From the NCBI GenBank assembly GCA_047606285.1, contig JASGEP010000020.1, forward strand, positions 30,891 through 94,890: a stretch of 64,000 nucleotides of DNA. The letters are read 5' to 3'. Positions within the stretch are counted from its first letter, which is position 1, and each line of letters starts with the position of its first letter. Made by a program: the position numbers and the translations under genes. This DNA comes from Luteolibacter sp. Its GTDB lineage: Bacteria > Verrucomicrobiota > Verrucomicrobiia > Verrucomicrobiales > Akkermansiaceae. Below, one piece after another: positions 40,972-54,980 of the stretch. A model generated the notes under the pieces. It saw nothing but the letters and a program-made list of their open reading frames with translations, did not search any database and had not been told where the DNA came from.

Positions 40972-42015
40972 ATGAGCGACCCGCAAATGCCAAACGAGTC
41001 CCTGTGGCCTGCGGAACGCGCGCCGGTCGCCATTCTGATGGTGGGCTCCACCGTCACCGCCATCGCTTCGGAATTAGTCGCGGACCTGGGTGGTTACGAA
41101 GAGGTTTTGACCATCGTCCGCCGGGGAGCTTCGACCCGTCTGCCCAAGTTCCCGGGCGGCAGCGAGCTGGTCGATAGCATGAAATATCTCAAAAATTTCG
41201 GTGCACGCCCAAAGATCGAGGAGTGCCTGGAGAAGATCACCGAAATCGTGGATGGCCGGCCGTTCGACTGTTTCATCCACCACAGCACCGCCATTTTCGC
41301 GCAGGTGCTTTCCAGCCATCCGTTGTGCCGGAAATACTTTTACCTTGAGGAAGGCATCACCGCGATGCTCGGCGGACAGTTCGGCCGACCGAAAAAACGG
41401 CATCTGAAACGTTGGCTCTGGCACCTCCGCAGCCGGGTTTTTTTCAGTGGGCGGGTCGACAAGTACCGTCCGTTCTTCGATACGGAATCTCCGAAATACG
41501 GCGGGGCCTGCGCGCTCACCAAGCCCGCCTTCAAGGGATTTCCCCGGCGCATCCAGCTTCCTTACGAACGCATGGACGCTACCGTGCCGCCCCCTGCCGA
41601 GATCGTCATTTTCCTCGATTCCCAATACATCCAGGGCGCGTGCCAGGTTGGTAGCTACCTCGCGGCGCTCACCTCGGCACTCGCTGCCTTGCCCGGCGGT
41701 AAAACAAGTGCCGCGGTGAAATTCCATCCCGCCGAAAAAGATGCGACCCGCCGAAAGCGGATCTTCGACGCGATCCGTTCTGTGGAAACCATCGATTCGC
41801 TGATCGAGCTTCCCGCCGGTTTTTCCGGAGAGCGGATGATTCTGGATCCCTCGGTGAAAATCGTCGTCGGCACTTCGGCCGCCGGTTTTTACATCGGTGA
41901 GCGGGGATTTCCCGCCTTCACGTTCGCACGGAGGATCGTGGAACTCGAGCCGTCCTTCAAAAAGATCGCCGATGGCTTGCCACCGTCATTTCTCGATGTT
42001 TGCCGCCCGGCCTGA
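40972..42015 (+). CDS. Sialyl/Kdo-transferase-like protein (GT38/GT52/GT80-type motifs)
   Basis: YFYLEEG (D/E-D/E-G motif), VKFHP (HP motif), VGTSAA near the C-terminus. Confidence 0.65.
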   Translation: MSDPQMPNESLWPAERAPVAILMVGSTVTAIASELVADLGGYEEVLTIVRRGASTRLPKFPGGSELVDSMKYLKNFGARPKIEECLEKITEIVDGRPFDCFIHHSTAIFAQVLSSHPLCRKYFYLEEGITAMLGGQFGRPKKRHLKRWLWHLRSRVFFSGRVDKYRPFFDTESPKYGGACALTKPAFKGFPRRIQLPYERMDATVPPPAEIVIFLDSQYIQGACQVGSYLAALTSALAALPGGKTSAAVKFHPAEKDATRRKRIFDAIRSVETIDSLIELPAGFSGERMILDPSVKIVVGTSAAGFYIGERGFPAFTFARRIVELEPSFKKIADGLPPSFLDVCRPA

Positions 42016-42747
42016 CCGCCCGGAGCTTTCATAAAAACGGATCGCCTTCTCCAGATCCGTCGGGGTGTCCACGGCGATGCCGGTTTCGTGGACCGGGACC
42101 ATTTGAATGGGGCGGTCGTGCTCGATGAAACGGTACATTTCCACGGACTCCGAACATTCGAGCGGGCCTTGCGGGGTCTTCGCGAAAAATTCCAGAGCTT
42201 CTTTCCGGAAAGCGTACAGCCCGAGTTGGCGGTGGTAAGATCCGGGATTGCGGAACGAGAGCGGGACGGGGAGCCGTGAATAAGACATGGCACGCCCTGA
42301 TTGGGAAAAAAGGACTTTGACGACGCTCGTGTCCCGGATTTCCTCGTCGGATTCGATCAGGGTGTAGGCGTTGGATGCCGCCAGACCGGGGACGGTGCTG
42401 TCCAGCAAGGCACGGGTCACGGCATCAATGGATGAAGGCTCGATAAAAGGTTCGTCACCTTGCACGTTGACGATCACATCGGCGTCCAGCAAGTGTGCGC
42501 ATTCGGCCACCCGGTCCGTGCCTGTTTGGTGGTCGGAACGGGTCATCAAGTAATTGAGGCCATACTCTTCGCAGGAGCCGGCGATACGTTGATCGTCTGT
42601 CGCGATGTAAACTTCCGCGATGGAAGCGGCTTTTGTCGCTTGTTGATAGACGTGCCACATCATGGGCTTGCCGCCGATCAGCACCAGAGGTTTCCCTTCG
42701 AACCGGGTGGAAAGATAACGGCAAGGGATGACGGCAGCGACTTTCAT
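41986..42747 (-). CDS. kdsB: CMP-ulosonate synthetase (3-deoxy-manno-octulosonate cytidylyltransferase family)
   Basis: IPCRYLSTRFEGKPL, IATDD, TGTDR, VNVQGDEP, GLYAF, ESVEMYR, VDTPTDL. Confidence 0.9.
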   Translation of the reverse strand: MKVAAVIPCRYLSTRFEGKPLVLIGGKPMMWHVYQQATKAASIAEVYIATDDQRIAGSCEEYGLNYLMTRSDHQTGTDRVAECAHLLDADVIVNVQGDEPFIEPSSIDAVTRALLDSTVPGLAASNAYTLIESDEEIRDTSVVKVLFSQSGRAMSYSRLPVPLSFRNPGSYHRQLGLYAFRKEALEFFAKTPQGPLECSESVEMYRFIEHDRPIQMVPVHETGIAVDTPTDLEKAIRFYESSGRSGRAANIEK

Positions 42748-43352
42748 GACAAAAAGGGAAGAAGATGGTCGATGGATTCCAGGGAAGCGATATTTTCGAT
42801 CGGCTGTCCATAGCCCCAGGAAGCATGGACGTAGTCGATTCCGGCGCGGACCGCCGCATGGTAGTCGGTGTCCATGTCCCCGACGTAAACTGTATCCGCC
42901 GGATCCTCACCGGACTCCGCCATGGCGATGAGCAGATGGTCCGGGGCGGGCTTTCCTCGGAACGGATTCTTGGGACATTGGATGGTGGAAAATTTCACAC
43001 CGAGCTGGTCGAGCACGGCTTTCGTCCGCACTTCGTCTTTTGAAGTGACGATTCCCAGTTTTTTGCCGCTGGCGGCGAGTGCCTGAAGTGTTTCCTTTGT
43101 GCCTTCGTAAAACGGGGCGTTCGAAAGGAAATAAAGGGATGAAGCCATATAGGCTTGCTCGATGGCGGCCTGGTTTTCCCCCAGTCCCAACCGATCCAGG
43201 ATGTCGCGGAACGGTCGGCCGATCAGCGCGAAATAATCTTCGAACGGCACCGTGATCCCCGTTTTTTTCCGGACAGCCGCCCACGCGTGTTCCATGTTCG
43301 CCTGTGAGTCGAGCAGCACACCGTCGAGATCGAAAAGAATGAGTTTTTTCAT
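42744..43352 (-). CDS. HAD-IA phosphatase coupled to kdsB
   Basis: LFDLDGVLLDS, IVTSK, KPAPD, YVGDMDTD; its stop overlaps the kdsB start. Confidence 0.85.
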   Translation of the reverse strand: MKKLILFDLDGVLLDSQANMEHAWAAVRKKTGITVPFEDYFALIGRPFRDILDRLGLGENQAAIEQAYMASSLYFLSNAPFYEGTKETLQALAASGKKLGIVTSKDEVRTKAVLDQLGVKFSTIQCPKNPFRGKPAPDHLLIAMAESGEDPADTVYVGDMDTDYHAAVRAGIDYVHASWGYGQPIENIASLESIDHLLPFLS

Positions 43353-43359
43353 GCGGGAT

Positions 43360-44496
43360 TCAGCGGCCGGGGGAAACCACGCCTTCGTAGATCGTCTCCA
43401 AGGTGGCGCATTGTTTGTGCAGATCGAAGTGCGAACGGACGTGATCGATTCCATTCCGGCCAAGCATTCTCGAAAGACTTTCATCCTCCAAGCAGCGGGT
43501 CAAGGCGGCAGCAAGCGCCGTGACATCCTTTTCCGGAACCAGAAGGCCGGTTTTTTCGTGAAGCACCGCTTCGGGAATGGCCGTGTGGAACGTGCTGACG
43601 ACCGGAGTGCCGAGCGCCATCGCTTCGAGGTTCACCATGCCGAGGCCCTCCGCATCGCCGGACTGGCTCGTTACGCTCGGCGCGCAAAACACCGCTGCCT
43701 TGCCGACCATATCCCTGACAAAATCCGGCCCTCGCTTGCCGTGAAAAACGATCCGTTCTCCCAGTGGGCGTGCGAGCTCCTCAAGCTCCCGTCGCAATCC
43801 GCCGTCGCCGATCATATGCAGCCTTTCTTTCCTGCCCGCCGCGGAGAGCCGGAGCATTGCTTCGATAAGGTAACGACAGCCTTTTTTTTCCGTCAGTCGA
43901 CCGACAAACACGATATCCGCTCGTGGGGTGCCTTCCGGCAACGGCGTGAAATGTGCGAGGTCGATGCCGATGAAATGCTTGACGATTTTTTCCGCCGGGC
44001 AACCGTGTTCGATCAGCCTGCGCCGGACGTAGTCGGAAACCGCGATGATCCGCGTCGCTTCACGGAACAGCCGGGGACGCCTTTTTTGGTAAGAGGAAGA
44101 AGGATCGTCGATCGTAATGTCAAAGCCATGAAAGGTCACGACAAGGGGCACTCCGAGGGCCTTGGCCAAAGGCAGTCCCATGAATAACCCGTCCGGGCCG
44201 AAATGAGTGTGCACAAGCGATGGCTGACGGCTCCTCAACGCGGCGAGCCAACTCCTGGAAACAAGGCCGAACCGCTTGAACAGAAACGCGGCGATCGATT
44301 TGAGTCCCACAGGTATTTCCTGGGTTAAAATGCAGGTCTCCGCATCCCGCAAAAGTCCCGCGCCGCTTCGATCCTCCGTTGCCCCGGAAAATACTGCTTT
44401 CCAAGACGGAAGATGCAGCCCTTGCGCGGCAACGAAAGTTTCCGAATACGGCAGCATACGCTTGCGGAATACCACGACACGGCGCTGATTACTCAT
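43360..44496 (-). CDS. GT4 glycosyltransferase (WcaL/AmsK-like)
   Basis: SETFV, HTHFG, TFHGFD, FVGRLTEKKG, EGLGMVNLEAMA. Confidence 0.9.
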   Translation of the reverse strand: MSNQRRVVVFRKRMLPYSETFVAAQGLHLPSWKAVFSGATEDRSGAGLLRDAETCILTQEIPVGLKSIAAFLFKRFGLVSRSWLAALRSRQPSLVHTHFGPDGLFMGLPLAKALGVPLVVTFHGFDITIDDPSSSYQKRRPRLFREATRIIAVSDYVRRRLIEHGCPAEKIVKHFIGIDLAHFTPLPEGTPRADIVFVGRLTEKKGCRYLIEAMLRLSAAGRKERLHMIGDGGLRRELEELARPLGERIVFHGKRGPDFVRDMVGKAAVFCAPSVTSQSGDAEGLGMVNLEAMALGTPVVSTFHTAIPEAVLHEKTGLLVPEKDVTALAAALTRCLEDESLSRMLGRNGIDHVRSHFDLHKQCATLETIYEGVVSPGR

Positions 44497-47088: not shown

Positions 47089-48185
47089 ATCTCGCTTTCA
47101 TCCAGCGATTGGATCAAATTGGCGGCGGCTCGCGGGTGAGTTTGCGTAGTACTATGTGGACATTGCGTGAGCACAGGCCAGACTGGCAGCTTTCCTTGGT
47201 GACTCAAAGCCGAGGGCCTTTGTCCGAAGCGGCACTGGAACAGGGAATTTCCTGGGTGTCTTCTTCCTTGCCACGTTTTCGAAAACCTTTGTCTCGTTTT
47301 GTCTTCTGGAGGGATTGCCGTCGCTTGGCCAGTCGTTTGAGCGGGACTTCACTGAATGCAATCGTGAGTAACGAGTGGGTGACAGCCCCACATGCGCGGG
47401 CGGTCGCGAAGTGTTTGAAGATTCCTGCGATTTCTTACGTGAGGGATTTCATCGCGGTTGAGCGTGGGAGGAAATATCTCCTTCACCGGATGGATCGTTT
47501 GCTTTGTGTGAGCGAATCCATGCGCGTGGCCATGATCGAGGCGGGGTACGATCCTGCGAAGCTGAAAACGGTTTACAATCCCGTCCTCAAGCCAGTGGTT
47601 CAGGAACCGGACCCTCAGTTGCTTCAAAAAATCAAATGTGCCGGAGCCAGAAGGTGGTTGCTTTACCTCGGCCGGATATCGTCTCGCAAAAACCAGATCG
47701 ACGCGGTGGAAACGTTGAAGCATTTGCGGAAATTTTCTAAGCAGGATTGGGGATTGTTAATCGTCGGAGACGAGGATGAAGATTACGCGAAACGATTGGA
47801 AGATCGGATCGCCGCTTCCGGGTTGTCAGGGAGGGCTCTTAAATTGGGAATGATTTCCCAACCGGGATGGCTGATTGACATGGTGGATGCTAGCGTTCTG
47901 ACAAGTAAAAGTGAAGGTCTGGCGAGGGTGCTAATCGAGTCCTTCCTGATGCGAATTCCCGCTTTTTCCTATCCAATGGCGGGTGTGGAGGATGTCTATG
48001 GCGAAAATTTGAAGGACTTCGTTTCGCAGGAGGGTGATCCGGAAGCTCTGGCGCGAATCATCGCGGAGCATATTGATGCGGAAGGAACGAGGCGGAAAAC
48101 TGAATTATTGGGTGATTTCCTCACGTACAGGCACTCAGTTAGCAATCATGTTCGCGAATTCGAAAAAGCTGTTGGGACAGAGTGA
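47085..48185 (+). CDS. GT4 glycosyltransferase (low GC)
   Basis: IGGGSR, YLGRISSRKNQ, SKSEGLARVLIES. Confidence 0.85.
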   Translation: MNLAFIQRLDQIGGGSRVSLRSTMWTLREHRPDWQLSLVTQSRGPLSEAALEQGISWVSSSLPRFRKPLSRFVFWRDCRRLASRLSGTSLNAIVSNEWVTAPHARAVAKCLKIPAISYVRDFIAVERGRKYLLHRMDRLLCVSESMRVAMIEAGYDPAKLKTVYNPVLKPVVQEPDPQLLQKIKCAGARRWLLYLGRISSRKNQIDAVETLKHLRKFSKQDWGLLIVGDEDEDYAKRLEDRIAASGLSGRALKLGMISQPGWLIDMVDASVLTSKSEGLARVLIESFLMRIPAFSYPMAGVEDVYGENLKDFVSQEGDPEALARIIAEHIDAEGTRRKTELLGDFLTYRHSVSNHVREFEKAVGTE

Positions 48186-49159
48186 ATATCCGGAACGAAC
48201 CCCATGATTTTTTCCTCCCGATGCTGATCTTCGATTTTCAGTTTCTTCCTCTTGGCTCGAACCTTGATCGCCTTTGGACGGAAAAACCACGGTATGAAGA
48301 AGCCCCGGGTGGCCCGGAATTCCGTTTCAATGCCCAGTAGTGTGGTGCCGCGGACAATCATTTCTCTCAAGTCTTCCAGAGCGTCGGGTGAGATTCCATG
48401 TTCTTTGAGGAACTCGGTTTGTTCTGCTAGAATTTCTGACGATTTCTCGATCAAAAGCCGGACGATCTGTGGGTCGGGTTGTTGTTTGTGTGCGGACTGC
48501 GCGTGAAATTTGAAATAGGACTCCACTTGGGGAGCGAGTGCCCAGCGAACTTTCCGCGCTACGGATAATGCCCACATAACATCTCCGCGATGCCCGCAAT
48601 CCTCGGGGAAGGGATTTTGTTGGAGGATATGGGTTCTGAACAGATTTCCGGAGCAACTGGAAAGGGGTGATTTCGGGAAAAATCCCAGGAGGAAAACCAA
48701 CCAATAGGCCTGAGGGAAGATTAGGGGATCAGTGAGCTGATAGTGTTCGATGAGGCGGTGGATTGGCCATTTCCTGGAACTTCGAGAGTGATCGGGATTC
48801 AGTAAAATAGGTGGAGAAATGACAACATCGGCGGATAACTTCTGAATAAGGTCAAAAAGTTTTTTCAGAGAGTGTGAGGGGAGGGGATCACCGGTGGTAG
48901 CTACCGTCGTAAACTCGTACTTTGCGTGTGAGATGCCGAAGTTCCAAGAGGGATAGAGGCCAGGAGGATGGTTGAGGAAAACGGCATTCGGGATTTGCAA
49001 ATGTTCCTTCAGGTAATCCAAGGTGCCATCCGATGAATCGCTGTCGACAACGATGATTTCGCCGGCGATTTCGGCAAGGTCGCGCAAGTGGGCTACGTGA
49101 GCGGGCATTTCCGATACGCACTCTCTTACCGGAGTGATGATGCTGACAGGAATTTTCAT
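48146..49159 (-). CDS. GT2 glycosyltransferase (low GC)
   Basis: VSIITPV, IIVVDSDSSDGT, GLYPSWNFGI. Confidence 0.8.
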   Translation of the reverse strand: MKIPVSIITPVRECVSEMPAHVAHLRDLAEIAGEIIVVDSDSSDGTLDYLKEHLQIPNAVFLNHPPGLYPSWNFGISHAKYEFTTVATTGDPLPSHSLKKLFDLIQKLSADVVISPPILLNPDHSRSSRKWPIHRLIEHYQLTDPLIFPQAYWLVFLLGFFPKSPLSSCSGNLFRTHILQQNPFPEDCGHRGDVMWALSVARKVRWALAPQVESYFKFHAQSAHKQQPDPQIVRLLIEKSSEILAEQTEFLKEHGISPDALEDLREMIVRGTTLLGIETEFRATRGFFIPWFFRPKAIKVRAKRKKLKIEDQHREEKIMGFVPDIHSVPTAFSNSRT

Positions 49160-49177: not shown

Positions 49178-50191
49178 TCAGTTAATTTTCCAGTATTTGT
49201 CGACCTGAGAGATGATATGCTCAGGATCTTTCAAGGAGAGTAGATCGCTGCGGTAGCATTTCGCTCGTTTGGGATTCAGCAGAGTATAGAACCAGCTTTT
49301 TTTGCGAATGATCGCTTGGTCGCAAGTAGGTAAAGCGGGTTTGCAAGTTTGTCGATATGGGAAAAAAATGTGGTGAGCTTCATGCCACAGGCAATGAGCG
49401 AGCCAATTGCTGGTTTTCGGGGCTTCCAGCCAGGGTTTGGACGTGCCGATGTAGTGAAGATTCAGATTAAGGTTGCCTTGGCAAAGCGGGCGGGTCGCAC
49501 CGATCGTGGTGCGGTGATTGATGCTGTTTGGCAGAATGTAGGATCTTCCCCGACAGAGAAAATTGAATACGGACTGGTCTCCTTGGCGGGCTTGCCCCGC
49601 CGCGGCGCGGGCGGCGATCGATCGGGCGGTGAAATCCACTTCGCGCAGCCCTTTCAGATTCATCCACATGACACCGCAGTTGATGTAGGGCAATTTGCGT
49701 TCTTCGGGTGGGACCTGATCTATCCACGGGCAGTCTTTTTCGATCACGCTGAAATAATCCCGCGCTCCGGCGAGGAGCCAGTGGGTTTCCCCCTGTGGTG
49801 GATGAACGGATTCAACTCCTTTGAAGCACAGCACATCGGCATCCAGGTAGATGATTTCGTCCAGATGGGGAAGCTGTTCGGGCAACACCAATTTGGCATA
49901 GGTCATGCGGGACCCCCGGCGCTCGGGCAGGGTCATCAGGCGCGATTGATCGATGGTCAAAAGGTCGATCGTGACCGCAATGCCTTTGAGCGATGCGATG
50001 CGTTCGATGACCTTGCGGAGCTCATCGAGAGATTCCGGAGGTAGCCCGCCGTCCAAAATAAGAAAGCGATAATCGTATTTCCCTGAGGCTGCTGCGGTCG
50101 TGGATGACACGGCCATTTCCAGACCGGGTAAAAATCGTGCGTCGGCATTGGAGACGATGGTCAGCAGAGGACGGGTGGAGGAATCGGTCAT
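49178..50191 (-). CDS. GT8 glycosyltransferase
   Basis: YAKL..P, IIYLDADVL, INCGVMWMNL, GDQSVFN, HYIGTSKPW. Confidence 0.9.
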   Translation of the reverse strand: MTDSSTRPLLTIVSNADARFLPGLEMAVSSTTAAASGKYDYRFLILDGGLPPESLDELRKVIERIASLKGIAVTIDLLTIDQSRLMTLPERRGSRMTYAKLVLPEQLPHLDEIIYLDADVLCFKGVESVHPPQGETHWLLAGARDYFSVIEKDCPWIDQVPPEERKLPYINCGVMWMNLKGLREVDFTARSIAARAAAGQARQGDQSVFNFLCRGRSYILPNSINHRTTIGATRPLCQGNLNLNLHYIGTSKPWLEAPKTSNWLAHCLWHEAHHIFFPYRQTCKPALPTCDQAIIRKKSWFYTLLNPKRAKCYRSDLLSLKDPEHIISQVDKYWKIN

Positions 50192-50916
50192 CGAGGCACT
50201 CGATAGGCGTTGAGGAGGAGAACTTGTTTTCGGGATGCACTACTAGCAAGTTTTTTTATAAACCGTCCGGGCGCGAGGTGAGCGTCGTAGTAGGCGCGGG
50301 CATTGCGGCGGAGCATGAGGATTTCTCCGGCATCCATGGTCAGGAGACGAGCGATTGTATCGCGGAGCGAGCCGGGGTCCTGGAAAATGAGGCAGTTTAC
50401 GCCGTGGGTGAACGGGTGGGTTAGATAGTCGACGTATTGGAGGATCGGGATGGTAAAAGAGGGTTTTTCGGAAGCGGTGGCGTCCGGCTGGATTCCACGC
50501 ATGAGCGAGTGATTGATCCCACGGCCGGTCCGATAAAGGGTGGTGGCGAGCCACTTCAGTCGTTGGTTTTTCCAACTGTTGTTGATGAATTCGATCAAAT
50601 TCCGCCAATGGTTCTCTTTGAAATGGATTTTGGAAGAACGGCTTCCGGCAAAGAGGGCGTTTAGCGATGGCTCGGGCGGGTGCTCCCGGGGATGCGGTAG
50701 CCGGAGCATCCACCGGTATGGCATGGCCTTGAGACAGCGTTTAATGATAGACCGGGCTTTCCGAGGAGGGAATATGGACCGAATGAAAATCTCCCGGACA
50801 TCGGCGGCCTGATGCTTGGCGAGTTTCCGGACAAACGCCAGGGATTGGACCAAATGTCCTTGGCTGCCTTTATTCAAGATCCATACTTTTTTCCCGGCTG
50901 GAAAACTTGACGGCAT
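50188..50916 (-). pseudogene. Chimeric ORF: ELM1-like N-terminal fragment, unrelated middle, and a duplicated C-terminus of the 51991-53100 gene
   Basis: N-terminus VWILNKGSQGHLVQSLAF resembles the ELM1/GtrOC1 start; the last about 89 aa are collinear with the exostosin-like protein C-terminus. Confidence 0.6.
50260..50454. repeat. Direct repeat copy A (partner at 52063-52257, offset 1803 bp)
   Basis: Ungapped 195-nt manual alignment, about 21 mismatches (about 89% identity). Confidence 0.9.
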
Positions 50917-50959
50917 GTTCAAATGAGGGAGGTGAGCTGATGGGTATGACGGAAGCATT

Positions 50960-51994
50960 TCAGGTGAAATCGAACACTCCGGGAGGCAGCGGACACACGG
51001 GTGATAGATTCCGGATCCGGATGTCTTTTCCGGCCAATGCCCGGTTCATCGTTTGAAAGGAGGGCAGGATCACGGAGGCGTATCGCTGTTCCAGTTTGCT
51101 GGGCATGGCATTCTGATAGACGCTGGAATTCCCCCTCAGATCCATGCCGATGATCTCGATGTCCTTGGCTCCAAGGCCGACCGCCGCTTGCAAGGCGACA
51201 AAGGCGACGGTGGCTGAAGGATAAAATCCCCAATCCATGTGATGGGACCAGCCGACCGAGCCTCTCCATCCAGAGGCACTCCGAAGATGAGGGGCCGAAT
51301 CGATGGGATGGGAACTACCGGAGTGTTCCGAAGCCCCCGTTTGATCTGGCAAATAGAACGGAAATTCTGACTGGAGGTTGATGTTTTTCAGGGTGGAAGG
51401 GGGTAAGGAAGGGGTTCCATACCATAAATTGACCCGTTCGATGATGGAGACTTTTTTATGATCCAACCCTCCGGGGAAATAACGGTGGATGGCTGCGGCG
51501 CAACGATACTCGATGATGAGGGGGACGCCTTCCGCGTTTCTGACATGGAATCCGTTGACTTTACTGAAATTCGGATCCGTGACGACGAGAAGATCCGGGA
51601 TAATGCCTCGTTCTTTCAGAAAACTCGCTCCCCCGGTGACGGCGATGATGAAGCGTCCGGAATGCTTCAGGGCTTCCCAGTCGTAAGCCAAGGCGGATGG
51701 GCCGGTGGTCACCAGAGTGACGGGCCGTTGGATCGGGGGGAGTAGTTCCGGGATGCGGGAAGATTCTACCGCGATTTTCCCTTTGAACCGCATCGCGGTA
51801 ATGGAGCCGTCCTTGCGATCGAAAGTGTAGCGGTGATCGAAACGTTTCAGGTGCTTCCACTCGTTTCTCCATAATAAATTGGCGAGCAGATGTTTGAACG
51901 GAGGAGGTAGGCAGAGGTCGATGCAACGCTGGATATTCCGGCGCTTTTGAAAGGAATGATCCGTCTGGAGGTAGCGAGGAAGAGTTTCTGTCAT
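50960..51994 (-). CDS. WaaZ/RfaZ-like putative Kdo transferase, copy 3
   Basis: VTTGPS, AVTGG, LVVTDPNF, GFYPSATVAFVALQ, IIGMDL; ATG at 51994 overlaps the upstream stop (ATGA). Confidence 0.72.
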   Translation of the reverse strand: MTETLPRYLQTDHSFQKRRNIQRCIDLCLPPPFKHLLANLLWRNEWKHLKRFDHRYTFDRKDGSITAMRFKGKIAVESSRIPELLPPIQRPVTLVTTGPSALAYDWEALKHSGRFIIAVTGGASFLKERGIIPDLLVVTDPNFSKVNGFHVRNAEGVPLIIEYRCAAAIHRYFPGGLDHKKVSIIERVNLWYGTPSLPPSTLKNINLQSEFPFYLPDQTGASEHSGSSHPIDSAPHLRSASGWRGSVGWSHHMDWGFYPSATVAFVALQAAVGLGAKDIEIIGMDLRGNSSVYQNAMPSKLEQRYASVILPSFQTMNRALAGKDIRIRNLSPVCPLPPGVFDFT

Positions 51995-53100
51995 CGGGGG
52001 GTACGGTAAGCGTTGAGGAGGAGGGTTTGATGCGGGTGGGAACCGCAGAACAGCTCCCGGAGAAACCGCCCGGGCGCGAGATGGGCGTCGTGGTAGGCAC
52101 GGACGTTGGTGCGCAGGGAGAGGATTTCTTCGGCATCCATGGTCAGGAGACGGGCGATTGTATCGCGGAGCGAGCCGGGGTCCTGGAAAGTGAGGCAGTT
52201 TACGCCGTGGGTGAGCGGGTGGGGCAGGTAGTCGGCGTATTGGAGGATCGGGATGGTGCCTGCGGCGAGGGCTTCGATCAGGTTGTGGCAGAGCGGCATG
52301 CCGACGCCGGGGCAGGCGAGAAAGAAGTCGGCTTTGGCCAAGGCGTCGAGCCAGCGTTCGGGTGGTATTTTGCAATGTTGGGTTTCGCAGAGGACAAACG
52401 AGCGTTTTTCGTCCGATGCGAGCCAGGTTTCCGCGTGAGTCGGGCGGTAGAGATCCGGGCAGACACGGGTGGCGACGCTGAGCATGTCGCGGCGAGTGAG
52501 CATGCCGTAAAGGGTGCGGATGACGTCCTTGTCGTATTTGCCTTCTTCGGTATTGCCGCCGAAGAAAAGCCGGACGGGCCGTTCTTCTGAGACGTTGTAA
52601 GGATAGGGCAGGTCGACTTTCGTGGTGATCTGCGGATGGACGAAAACGGGAAATTCGACTTCATCCGGAGAGGCGGCGGTGCGCCAGGTGTAGTCGACTT
52701 TGATCATACGCTTCGCGTTTGGGTCAGCGGATTCCTGGGAATCGGTGATGAGATCGTATGGCTCGTGGAGAGCCTGAAGCGATGGAATGACACCGAGTCT
52801 TTCCTTGAGGAGGATGGATTTCATCCGGCTGGTGCCGAAGGAGGAAAGGGTGGCGCGGCGGGCGGTGAAAACGGGGAAATACCCGGCGTCGATGGCATCC
52901 CGGACGAGGCTGAAATAGTAGCGTCCGCCGACGGCATCAATGGTCGGGTTTTGAAAATCGAAGCAAAGAATCGGTTCACCGGAGTGACGTTCCGACAGGC
53001 CGCGTGCCGTCAACTGCGCGAATGCCCGGCGGTAGCGCGGGCTGATGTAAGGGCGGAGGCGTCGATAGTGTGCTTCCAGCCATTTTCCCGAATTGGCCAT
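51991..53100 (-). CDS. Exostosin-like (GT47-like) glycosyltransferase
   Basis: LFFGGN, DALAKADFFLACPG, LIEALAAGTIPIL. Confidence 0.65.
   Translation of the reverse strand: MANSGKWLEAHYRRLRPYISPRYRRAFAQLTARGLSERHSGEPILCFDFQNPTIDAVGGRYYFSLVRDAIDAGYFPVFTARRATLSSFGTSRMKSILLKERLGVIPSLQALHEPYDLITDSQESADPNAKRMIKVDYTWRTAASPDEVEFPVFVHPQITTKVDLPYPYNVSEERPVRLFFGGNTEEGKYDKDVIRTLYGMLTRRDMLSVATRVCPDLYRPTHAETWLASDEKRSFVLCETQHCKIPPERWLDALAKADFFLACPGVGMPLCHNLIEALAAGTIPILQYADYLPHPLTHGVNCLTFQDPGSLRDTIARLLTMDAEEILSLRTNVRAYHDAHLAPGRFLRELFCGSHPHQTLLLNAYRTPR
52063..52257. repeat. Direct repeat copy B
   Basis: See copy A; lies in the 3' end of the exostosin-like gene. Confidence 0.9.
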
Positions 53101-53102
53101 GC

Positions 53103-53924
53103 TCAGGGTTGGGGACGTTTGTGAATTCCGTTGGGGCACCACACGCTGCCGCTGGCAATCACTTCCTGGCGGATGGCCATGTTTTTCGCCATGGTTTCCG
53201 GGGTTTTGTAGCCGCGTTTGTGATCGAGGTGCAGGACGATGGCCTGATAGCGGATTTGTCGCCCGGTGACGCCGTAGTTCGCGAGGCGCTCGCCGAGTTC
53301 GCGATCCGCGCCGCCGTATTGCATGTCTTCGTTGAAGCCGTTGACGGCGATGAGATCGTCTTTCCAGCCGGATGCGTTGCAGTTGTTCCAGGTGGCTTTG
53401 GTGGGCGTGATGGCATCCATCAGCGGTCCGAGAGCGGGAGGCAGGCCGATTTTCAGGGACGGGGAAAACTCCTTCAGGCCGTTGGTGCGGAGAAAACCGA
53501 CGTCGAAGGCGCGGCCGCTTTCGATGTCATCGAGCGTGAGTTTGAGGCTCAAATCCATCGGCAGCTTGCAATAGCCACCGGAAAGAAAATGGCCGCGTTT
53601 GGCGTGCTTGGTGTGCACGGCGAGAAAATCCGGACGCGGGATGCAATCGCCGTCCGTCATGAGGATGTAATCGTACTCCGCTTGCTGGAGGGCGACGTTG
53701 AGAATGGTTTGACGCCGGTATCCTTCATCGGCGTGCCAGACGTGTTTGATGGGGTAGTTCGAGACTTGTCTGAAGTTTTCGATCACGTCGATCGTCCGCT
53801 GGTCCGAACCGTCGTCGGCGATGAGCACTTCGAAGTCCCGGAAGGTCTGATACAGGTAACCGTGCAGGACTTTGTTCAGCCAATCGGGCTGGTTGTAGGT
53901 GCTGATAACGACGGATTGTTTCAT
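53103..53924 (-). CDS. GT2 glycosyltransferase with galactosyltransferase-like C-terminus
   Basis: SVVISTYN, IADDGS, MTDGDCIP, NGFNEDMQYGGADRE. Confidence 0.9.
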   Translation of the reverse strand: MKQSVVISTYNQPDWLNKVLHGYLYQTFRDFEVLIADDGSDQRTIDVIENFRQVSNYPIKHVWHADEGYRRQTILNVALQQAEYDYILMTDGDCIPRPDFLAVHTKHAKRGHFLSGGYCKLPMDLSLKLTLDDIESGRAFDVGFLRTNGLKEFSPSLKIGLPPALGPLMDAITPTKATWNNCNASGWKDDLIAVNGFNEDMQYGGADRELGERLANYGVTGRQIRYQAIVLHLDHKRGYKTPETMAKNMAIRQEVIASGSVWCPNGIHKRPQP

Positions 53925-53959
53925 GAAAATGGGATTGGAGGTGGGCCCAAGGGAAAGCA

Positions 53960-54595
53960 TCATTCCGGTTCGGGGCGTCTTGCAAGTGAGATTGCCAAAC
54001 CGAGGGTGCCGACAAAAATCAGGTAGCAGGCGAGCAATTCGAGGTAGCTTTTACAGATTCTCGGGATTTCCGGAGCGAAGGCGTCGCCCAGGGAGGCTTT
54101 CCAGAATACGGCGGAGCCCATCACCCGGTTGAAGACATAAAGAATGAGCAGGGCGGCACCGATGAAACCGGTGCCGGTGTGGCTGCCGAGGGATCTTCCG
54201 AACCGCAACACCGTGCGTTTGTGGCGCAGGCAGGTGACGAGCGCGATGGCGAGAATAACGCAGATGATTTCTCCCTCGGGCAGTTTGATCTGCAGGAAAT
54301 CCCAGAAAAAATCTTCGATTTCCCCCACCACGGCGGCGAAGAGGCAAAGGGCGATGGCGCGGCAGATCGGGCGATTGGGACCGGTATGGGGGGAGGCTCC
54401 GAGCATTACGGCCGCTCCCGCCACGAGAAGCAGTGCCTGGAGCAGCTCCACGGTGCCGCGGGTGAGCGGGACGCCCGGCCGGTTCGGTAACCAGGCGGGC
54501 AGGAGAATGGCGACGCACCCACCACAGATCAGAGCCGCGCGAACGAGGTGGCGGGACAGGGATTTGCTTCCGGGTTGGTAAGGAGAACGAGCCAC
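53960..54595 (-). CDS. Hypothetical polytopic membrane protein
   Basis: About six hydrophobic segments; GTG start; overlaps the region just upstream of the GT2 gene. Confidence 0.65.
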   Translation of the reverse strand: MARSPYQPGSKSLSRHLVRAALICGGCVAILLPAWLPNRPGVPLTRGTVELLQALLLVAGAAVMLGASPHTGPNRPICRAIALCLFAAVVGEIEDFFWDFLQIKLPEGEIICVILAIALVTCLRHKRTVLRFGRSLGSHTGTGFIGAALLILYVFNRVMGSAVFWKASLGDAFAPEIPRICKSYLELLACYLIFVGTLGLAISLARRPEPE

Positions 54596-54745
54596 CCTGT
54601 TTGGCTAATGCCATTCGGGAAGGCTGGCAAGGCTGGAGGGGAAGAAGGGCGAACCAGTCAGGGGGGAGTTCAACCGCGAATGAACGCCAATGGACGCGAA
54701 TTTATTATGATTTTCCAAAGATCTGGAAAAATCCGGATTCTTTTT

Positions 54746-54812
54746 CTCCAGAGACTCCAGAGACTCCAGAGACTCCGGAAACTCCGGAAACTCCGGAAAC
54801 TCCGGAAACTCC
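54746..54812. repeat. 9-bp tandem repeat, about 7.4 units (CTCCAGAGA x3, then CTCCGGAAA x4)
   Basis: Read directly from the sequence. Confidence 0.95.
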
Positions 54813-54862
54813 TCGAGTCGTAACGATTCGCGTTTAGATCCATTGCCAAAATATTCTGCCGG

Positions 54863-54980
54863 AATTGGAGCGCGGACTTCAGTCCGCCCCAAAGAATCCA
54901 GCCAACAATGCCAAGCGGACTAAAGTCCGCGCTCCCAGTAAGCCACCGAAGCCAAACGGACTGAAGTCCGTGCTCCAATT
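54863..54980. repeat. REP family B triplet (one forward, two reverse arms)
   Basis: GGAGCGCGGACTTCAGTCCG; CGGACTAAAGTCCGCGCTCC; CGGACTGAAGTCCGTGCTCC; spacers resemble that of the 45828 element. Confidence 0.85.

Follow-up and report, generated by a model that had tools for sequence, protein, structure and literature searches.

C-terminal displacement in Rhs and contact-dependent growth inhibition (CDI) toxin loci, and the sequential displacement of effector-immunity modules in type VI secretion systems (T6SS), are the described systems closest to the locus reported here (Kirchberger et al., 2017; PMC5361080). On displacement and orphan modules, that article refers to Jackson et al. (2009) and to Koskiniemi et al. 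(2014). The mechanism proposed there for displacement is homology-facilitated illegitimate recombination (HFIR), which is described in transformation and conjugation (PMC3240628) and for which the same article cites de Vries and Wackernagel (2002) and Prudhomme et al. (2002). Capsule, O-antigen and lipooligosaccharide (LOS) loci are reported to diversify by recombination in conserved flanks, as in the pneumococcal cps locus (PMC5850285) and the Klebsiella K locus (PMC13043062). Here we describe a direct repeat within a glycosyltransferase operon of Luteolibacter sp. (Verrucomicrobiota), located in a 64,000-nt stretch of contig JASGEP010000020.1 of assembly GCA_047606285.1 (hereafter the window). 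The repeat is likely a scar that recombination left where the glycosyltransferase gene varies, within a glycan cluster of the 3-deoxy-D-manno-octulosonic acid (Kdo)/lipopolysaccharide (LPS) type. All coordinates below are positions in the window, and the operon genes of interest all lie on the minus strand. In the order of transcription, the genes and repeat copies concerned are the following.

53103-53963, minus strand: GT2_a, a family-2 glycosyltransferase gene (Pfam PF00535, E=1.2e-19)
51991-53142, minus strand: Exo, a full-length gene for an exostosin-like, GT-B-type glycosyltransferase, 383 codons from a GTG start
51987-52257, minus strand: repeat copy B, which takes in the final 88 codons of the intact Exo together with its stop and its ATGA junction
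50960-51994, minus strand: WaaZ-like gene, MptE-like/DUF115 and Kdo-III-transferase-like, 344 aa (Pfam PF01973, E=2.7e-11)
50188-50958, minus strand: relic open reading frame (ORF) of 256 codons, a remnant of an ELM1-family gene plus an Exo tail, with a stop that overlaps the GT8 start (ATGA)
50455-50958, minus strand: E', what is left of a glycosyltransferase gene of the ELM1 family (PF06258), joined in frame to the Exo tail
50184-50454, minus strand: repeat copy A, an orphan Exo 3' end of 88 codons with its stop and ATGA junction
49178-50191, minus strand: GT8, a family-8 glycosyltransferase gene (Pfam PF01501, E=8.7e-26)

A repeat search paired 50260-50454 with 52063-52257 (195 nt, 89% identity, spacing 1803), and a second match, between 50184-50220 and 51987-52023 (37 nt, 78%), has the same spacing. 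When the copies are compared in register, homology extends without indels over 271 nt (50184-50454 against 51987-52257), and beyond 50454/50455 identity falls abruptly from 100% to chance level (17-40%). A 195-nt match at 89% identity is far beyond chance. Copy A corresponds to about codons 294-383 of Exo plus the stop, kept downstream of the intact gene. Both copies terminate in ...CGATGA, in which TGA is the stop (50188-50190 and 51991-51993, both within ATGA overlaps) and ATG is the start of GT8 in copy A and of the WaaZ-like gene in copy B. The spacing of 1803 equals 601 codons, and the two copies therefore share a reading frame. The Exo tail has no matches elsewhere in the genome and there is no third copy, and the repeat search returned no inverted repeats bracketing the 1803-bp unit. 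A previous reading of the window from its sequence only (the sequence-only reading) had noted a gene end present twice without indels, with a 195-nt core about 89% identical, a spacing of 1803 and an ATGA overlap at each copy, and all of these points are confirmed. It overlooked that copy A lies inside a fused 256-codon ORF and that identity along the repeat is strongly heterogeneous. Overall, its observation was right and its interpretation about half right.

To place the repeat in context we used 209 genomes of the same genus, of which 28 encode Exo orthologs (51-67% identity). The gene following Exo in these 28 is GT8 in 10, an ELM1-family gene in 10 and a WaaZ-like gene in six, with two left unassigned. 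GT2_a is the conserved left partner, present upstream of Exo in all loci of relatives with enough contig. The sequence-only reading had pointed to relatives with Exo directly followed by GT8, and these exist: GT8 orthologs (54-70% identical) occupy this place in the 10 GT8-type genomes. Two of them (G036 and G152) have the order GT2-Exo-GT8 followed by convergent GT4 and WaaZ-like genes, as in the right flank of the window operon, where a WaaZ-like gene and a GT4 gene converge on it from the plus strand; two others (G161 and G005) have the same order as far as their contigs extend. Compared with GT2-Exo-GT8 loci, the window has 1803 extra bp between Exo and GT8, which hold the WaaZ-like gene and duplicate the Exo end. 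In a tree of Exo the three slot types are interspersed, and well-supported branches require at least four changes per type. The ATGA overlap is present at 10 of 10 GT8-type junctions and at least seven of nine ELM1-type junctions. Thus, the two overlaps in the window were inherited with their modules rather than made by the event, and the earlier idea that the event itself had kept translational coupling does not hold.

An orphan Exo end was detected only in the window among the 28 Exo-bearing genomes. Two full-length tandem Exo genes, which the sequence-only reading had named as the arrangement that would speak against it, were encountered in none of these 28 (209 searched). Where a relative gives a second Exo match, it is half of a frameshifted gene (G007, G035) or sits on a different contig (G202). 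In G007:C89 (L019) and G035:C125 (L020) Exo is split by frameshifts or stops, and in G035 GT8 is split as well, which points to decay of the locus or to errors in sequencing. The three Exo loci of G202 each have a contig of their own (C199, C128 and C315; L041/L060, L058), and at least two of them differ in slot type (WaaZ-type and ELM1-type). These could be paralogous loci or a strain mixture in a metagenome-assembled genome, and could serve as substrates for recombination between loci.

Pairs of relatives with different slot genes place the exchange breakpoint inside Exo itself. The WaaZ-type locus of G065 is about 90% identical in nucleotide sequence to the GT8-type loci of G161 and G152 across GT2_a and Exo, and identity collapses to about 50% right after the GVNCL.F codons, some 195 nt before the Exo stop. 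Between G161 and G152, identity of about 90% holds through the Exo stop into GT8. A second pair, G202a (WaaZ-type) and G069 (ELM1-type), drops from about 78% to about 50% identity at the same point of Exo. In a tree of the last 70 Exo residues, G065 leaves G161 and G152 and joins the WaaZ-type G202a. Because identity collapses inside Exo, the swapped module takes in the last ~65 Exo codons. On the evidence of these alignments, the usual homologous breakpoint is the last conserved patch of Exo.

In the window, copy A forms only the C-terminal third (88 codons) of the 256-codon relic ORF, and the first two thirds derive from a different gene. The gene caller annotated only the last 178 codons of this ORF. 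The first ~165 codons match the ~340-aa gene that follows Exo in relatives, in two separate blocks at about 44% identity; an ortholog of this source gene (G213) matches PF06258 with E=8.8e-24. Compared with full-length orthologs in alignments, E' is without ~87 internal residues (deletion site near 50670), which account for most of the N-terminal Rossmann domain, and without the C-terminal ~100 residues. It keeps 32 of 43 columns that are invariant in 11 orthologs, each of which keeps 43 of 43-47. The join of E' to the Exo tail omits a strand-helix unit, present as ADxxxVTMDSLT..EA.ASG in the ELM1-family protein and as ADFFLACPG..EALAAG in Exo. The whole 256-aa ORF has no Pfam match even at E<=1, and no homolog with its architecture was found among 5.8 billion protein clusters. 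We considered whether the ORF might be an ELM1/Mito_fiss_Elm1 (PF06258) transferase and rejected this, given the missing Pfam match and the loss of ~87 internal and ~100 C-terminal residues. By these sequence features the relic ORF is best described as a gene wreck joined to a displaced Exo end, not a transferase, and 50454/50455, the left edge of copy A, as an illegitimate junction. With an illegitimate junction and a gene remnant, the insert is not a clean cassette. The sequence-only reading had the insert consist of the gene end plus a third waaZ copy; the 1803 extra bp do contain the WaaZ-like gene and the duplicated Exo end, but also the wreck of the ELM1-family gene. Local alignment against 11 tails was used to look for another decayed Exo tail in the stretch that separates E' from the WaaZ-like gene; scores were no higher than those of shuffled sequences, and the idea was rejected.

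The Exo tails themselves are well preserved, with 28 of 30 conserved positions kept in tail A and 29 of 30 in tail B. The relic frame is open across two joints (deletion and fusion), for which the chance is about one in nine if neutral, and no obvious ribosome-binding sequence precedes GT8, as judged by eye rather than by a scan. The relic ORF may be kept open since ribosomes finishing at the ATGA would re-initiate on GT8; that is, we propose that selection for termination-reinitiation at this overlap maintains the frame.

The repeat copies are mosaic. In a maximum chi-square analysis, the breakpoint at 50259/50260 has a value reached in none of 1,000 permutations, and it divides the coding part of the repeat into two segments.

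50260-50454, minus strand: segment 1 of copy A, paired with 52063-52257; 21 of its 195 nt differ, 86% aa identity
50191-50259, minus strand: segment 2 of copy A, paired with 51994-52062; 32 of its 69 nt differ, 50% aa identity

In segment 1 copies A and B are mutually closest, with at most 70% aa identity to any ortholog. In segment 2, which includes a 39-nt stretch at chance-level identity, they are as diverged from each other as between species, and they reach up to 71% aa identity to orthologs. Synonymous differences at codons for the same amino acid number 9 of 56 in segment 1 versus 5 of 11 in segment 2 (p=0.043). In total, 53 of 264 positions differ between the copies, and the longest identical runs are 36, 24, 22 and 22 nt. 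The simplest reading of this pattern would be that the two parents were closely related as far as a module boundary around 50259/50260 and carried different modules beyond it.

These observations can be combined into a scheme in which GT2_a and Exo are constant, and GT8, the ELM1-family transferase and the WaaZ-like gene are alternatives for one slot, usually starting at an ATGA shared with the Exo stop. The slot genes are swapped by homologous recombination with the left breakpoint within the Exo 3' end, so that the last part of Exo travels with the downstream gene. In the window, one such exchange between two related locus variants probably went imprecisely: one end would have been resolved by homology in GT2_a/Exo, and the other would have been joined illegitimately, so that a truncated gene of the ELM1 family ran into Exo of the other variant at codon 294. 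The expected product would be an intact Exo, the WaaZ-like gene, an ELM1 remnant with the displaced Exo end, and GT8. Either a WaaZ-type module could have entered a GT8-type locus, or a GT8-type segment could have entered a locus with WaaZ-like and ELM1-family genes. The order and direction of these events are inferred, as are a donor and a recipient that were close relatives carrying different modules. The hallmarks of displacement found at this locus and at those of relatives are a shared upstream gene, breakpoints within a gene, a retained 3' fragment and one illegitimate junction.

Several points weigh against a displacement scar. No parental locus was found, and for every gene even the nearest homologs reach just 55-70% identity. 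Conspecific strains were likewise not found, and the protein clusters of Exo, the WaaZ-like protein and the relic each have a single member, from one contig. The adjacency of a WaaZ-like gene to a following ELM1-family gene, which would characterize the simplest donor, is absent from every sampled WaaZ-type locus, and two successive events or an unsampled donor are therefore required. The near-identity of segment 1 could equally stem from later gene conversion, and the 3' segments of A and B, with few sites, are not assignable to GT8-type or WaaZ-type tails. Finally, the junctions depend on the assembly. Two scans of metagenomes, with an exact 32-nt core pattern and with a codon-degenerate pattern for QDPGSLRDTIARLLTMDA, returned no matches.

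The sequence-only reading had instead proposed that a circular or foreign DNA entered by a single crossover. Formulated for the locus as it now stands, a circle on which the WaaZ-like gene and the ELM1 remnant accompanied the Exo end would have integrated by a Campbell-type crossover within that end and thereby duplicated it. Such an event would account for a direct repeat that flanks extra DNA, for copies in register and for a spacing that is a multiple of three; segment 1, with its 195 nt of high identity, is a plausible place for the crossover, and a doubled resident segment is what characterizes insertion-duplication. However, the left end of copy A is the illegitimate junction to the ELM1 remnant, which is at odds with a purely homologous crossover, and the joint of E' to Exo codon 294 must have existed beforehand, so that for the circle circularisation comes on top of the illegitimate step that displacement also requires. 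The identical product results from a linear fragment of which one end joins by homology and the other illegitimately. The 1.8-kb unit and its neighbors hold only transferase genes and a remnant, and functions for replication, integrase or mobilisation are absent from the unit and its surroundings. Nothing points to a circle, and we regard this origin as unlikely. The close clustering of copies A and B against all orthologs would also suit an origin in situ, in which two ancestral Exo paralogs stood in tandem with other genes separating them, a subsequent deletion joined the second one to the ELM1-family gene, and gene conversion preserved the likeness of part of the two ends, and the three Exo loci of different types in G202 indicate that paralogous loci can coexist. 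Yet the copies of G202 are on separate contigs, the absence of tandem Exo genes extends to all 28 genomes, the flanks fit a plain GT8-type locus, and divergence of segment 2 at the between-species level is not explained by a recent duplication; this possibility thus receives little credence from us.

Two further explanations concern the relic and the assembly. The 256-aa ORF might be a selected functional fusion, for example a regulatory or scaffold subunit that combines an ELM1-type N-terminal piece with an Exo C-terminal piece. Its open frame, its well-conserved Exo tail and its intact stop-start overlap with GT8 would all be expected of such a protein, but selection for translational coupling to GT8 explains the open frame equally well. 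Moreover, 11 of the 43 invariant ELM1-type positions are altered, most of the N-terminal Rossmann domain and the strand-helix unit are missing, and an architecture unique to this genome that matches no Pfam family makes a functional fusion very improbable. A misassembly, in which two strain variants were concatenated at the shared Exo end, has to be considered for a draft genome of 51 contigs, given that strain-variable glycan loci are prone to chimeric assembly. Against this, the longest run shared by the two copies is only 36 nt, there is no repeat at the E'-Exo junction at which an assembler could switch paths, the number of differences between the copies indicates neither a collapsed nor a duplicated repeat, and the frame and the ATGA junctions are intact in a contig of 128 kb. 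We therefore consider an artefact extremely unlikely, and a scar of displacement within the slot is the explanation that we carry forward.

The sequence-only reading had also suggested that the reverse event would cleanly excise the inserted gene and thereby act as a glycan on/off switch. When a deletion between the repeats is simulated, the product is indeed an intact hybrid Exo that still overlaps GT8, which agrees with the first part of this suggestion. Such an 1803-bp deletion would presumably be rare and RecA-dependent, and it would remove the WaaZ-like gene in one direction, as a one-way loss rather than a reversible switch. A programmed phase-variation switch was considered and finds no support, since no recombinase family is encoded nearby and no inverted repeats bracket the unit; more generally, no recombinase or mobile-element genes were found among the neighboring ORFs. 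A bolder version would treat the Exo 3' end with its ATGA as a recurrent, integrase-free docking site, with the last ~65 Exo residues specific to the partner transferase and the repeat acting as a glycan switch at the level of the population. We hold this to be improbable. If it were true, transferases could be swapped with coupling preserved, the last ~65 Exo residues would have to travel with the downstream transferase, and the in-frame relic together with the 271-bp repeat would offer a one-step route, by the 1803-bp deletion, back to an Exo-GT8 glycan.

Of the individual genes, Exo has only weak Pfam matches (PF13524 and PF03016). Its start is ambiguous (53098-53142): the longest ORF begins at the GTG at 53142, within GT2_a, and the protein predicted by the gene caller (P0003, 369 aa) begins at an ATG at 53100, 2 nt past the GT2_a stop (TGAGCATG). 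The closest homolog anywhere of the WaaZ-like protein encoded between Exo and the relic is 58% identical, and the gene has two paralogs within the same cluster. Its assignment as a WaaZ Kdo-III transferase was rejected, as the match to TIGR04437 (WaaZ_KDO_III, E=9e-14) covers only the C-terminal 90 residues and scores 51.4 bits versus a cut-off of 200. The product is thus designated WaaZ-like (MptE-like, PF01973) on the basis of predicted homology, short of a demonstrated WaaZ. A Ser/Gly/His-rich insertion of ~28 residues at residues ~218-246 is absent from both cluster paralogs and from the ~325-aa orthologs, and matches break at residues 217 and 245-247. In relatives with a WaaZ-type locus, the WaaZ-like gene is followed by one for a protein of 336-343 aa (L073:3012-4022, L074:1287-2300, L071:3077-4108). 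This protein is unrelated to the ELM1-family protein and has no family assigned, its sole match being a very weak one to Capsule_synth (KpsC/KpsS-like, E ~0.1).

The minus-strand operon of the window ends with one further transferase gene.

48146-49159, minus strand: GT2_b, a family-2 glycosyltransferase gene (Pfam PF00535), the last gene of the operon

Homologs of GT2_b (43-44%) sit farther downstream in the WaaZ-type loci of relatives. G+C content, at ~0.60 in Exo, ~0.55 in the WaaZ-like gene and E' and ~0.50 further on, is not decisive, and a scan for promoters and terminators gave counts no higher than in shuffled sequence. Elsewhere in the cluster (41986-43484), genes for a HAD phosphatase and for a KdsB-type cytidylyltransferase (NF003952, E=5.8e-77) form a coupled pair, which in relatives is also found close to WaaZ-type loci (L074). 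A 9-nt tandem array (CTCCAGAGA / CTCCGGAAA phases; region of 54737-54817 and 54863-54980) is situated where the glycan cluster ends, beside nested inverted repeats of 21-24 nt that are 95-96% complementary.

The process reflected here is a known one: an ordinary route of diversification with unusually clear junctions, and no new mechanism, enzyme or element. The locus nevertheless offers an unusually legible snapshot of the rewiring of a surface-glycan operon, in which genes of three unrelated transferase families share one stop-start overlap as their starting point. It raises two testable ideas, that the relic ORF stays open solely to pass ribosomes on to the gene that follows and that a deletion between the repeats could alter the glycan. 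If a displacement scar is the correct explanation, the displacement pattern of the Rhs, CDI and T6SS toxin loci is extended to a glycosyltransferase operon in Verrucomicrobiota.

As in capsule, O-antigen and LOS loci, conserved genes bracket variable transferases, lineages swap variants and remnants mark the events. The window differs in that its breakpoint is inside a transferase gene, ~65 codons before the stop, and in that the alternative genes of this locus type all begin at one stop-start overlap. It resembles Campbell-type insertion-duplication insofar as a direct repeat of a homologous segment flanks the insert and a reverse crossover would excise it precisely. Unlike in that process, one boundary of the repeat is illegitimate and the copies are mosaic, with no sign of a circle, replicon or integrase. 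HFIR likewise pairs a homologous side, here GT2_a/Exo, with an abrupt non-homologous junction, here 50454/50455; it is defined by experiment, whereas the case in the window is deduced from its product. The closest likeness is to the Rhs, CDI and T6SS loci, in which a conserved 5' part of a gene serves as the homologous anchor through which a new 3' end and downstream gene enter, the old 3' end and its gene are pushed downstream with a conserved stretch that forms a direct repeat, and later recombination between the repeats can delete the newer module. In contrast to those loci, the genes in the window are glycosyltransferases of one operon rather than toxin-immunity pairs, and there is a single displaced end, fused to the wreck of a third gene, instead of an array. 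The displaced GT8, moreover, is probably still expressed, via its ATGA overlap with the relic ORF.

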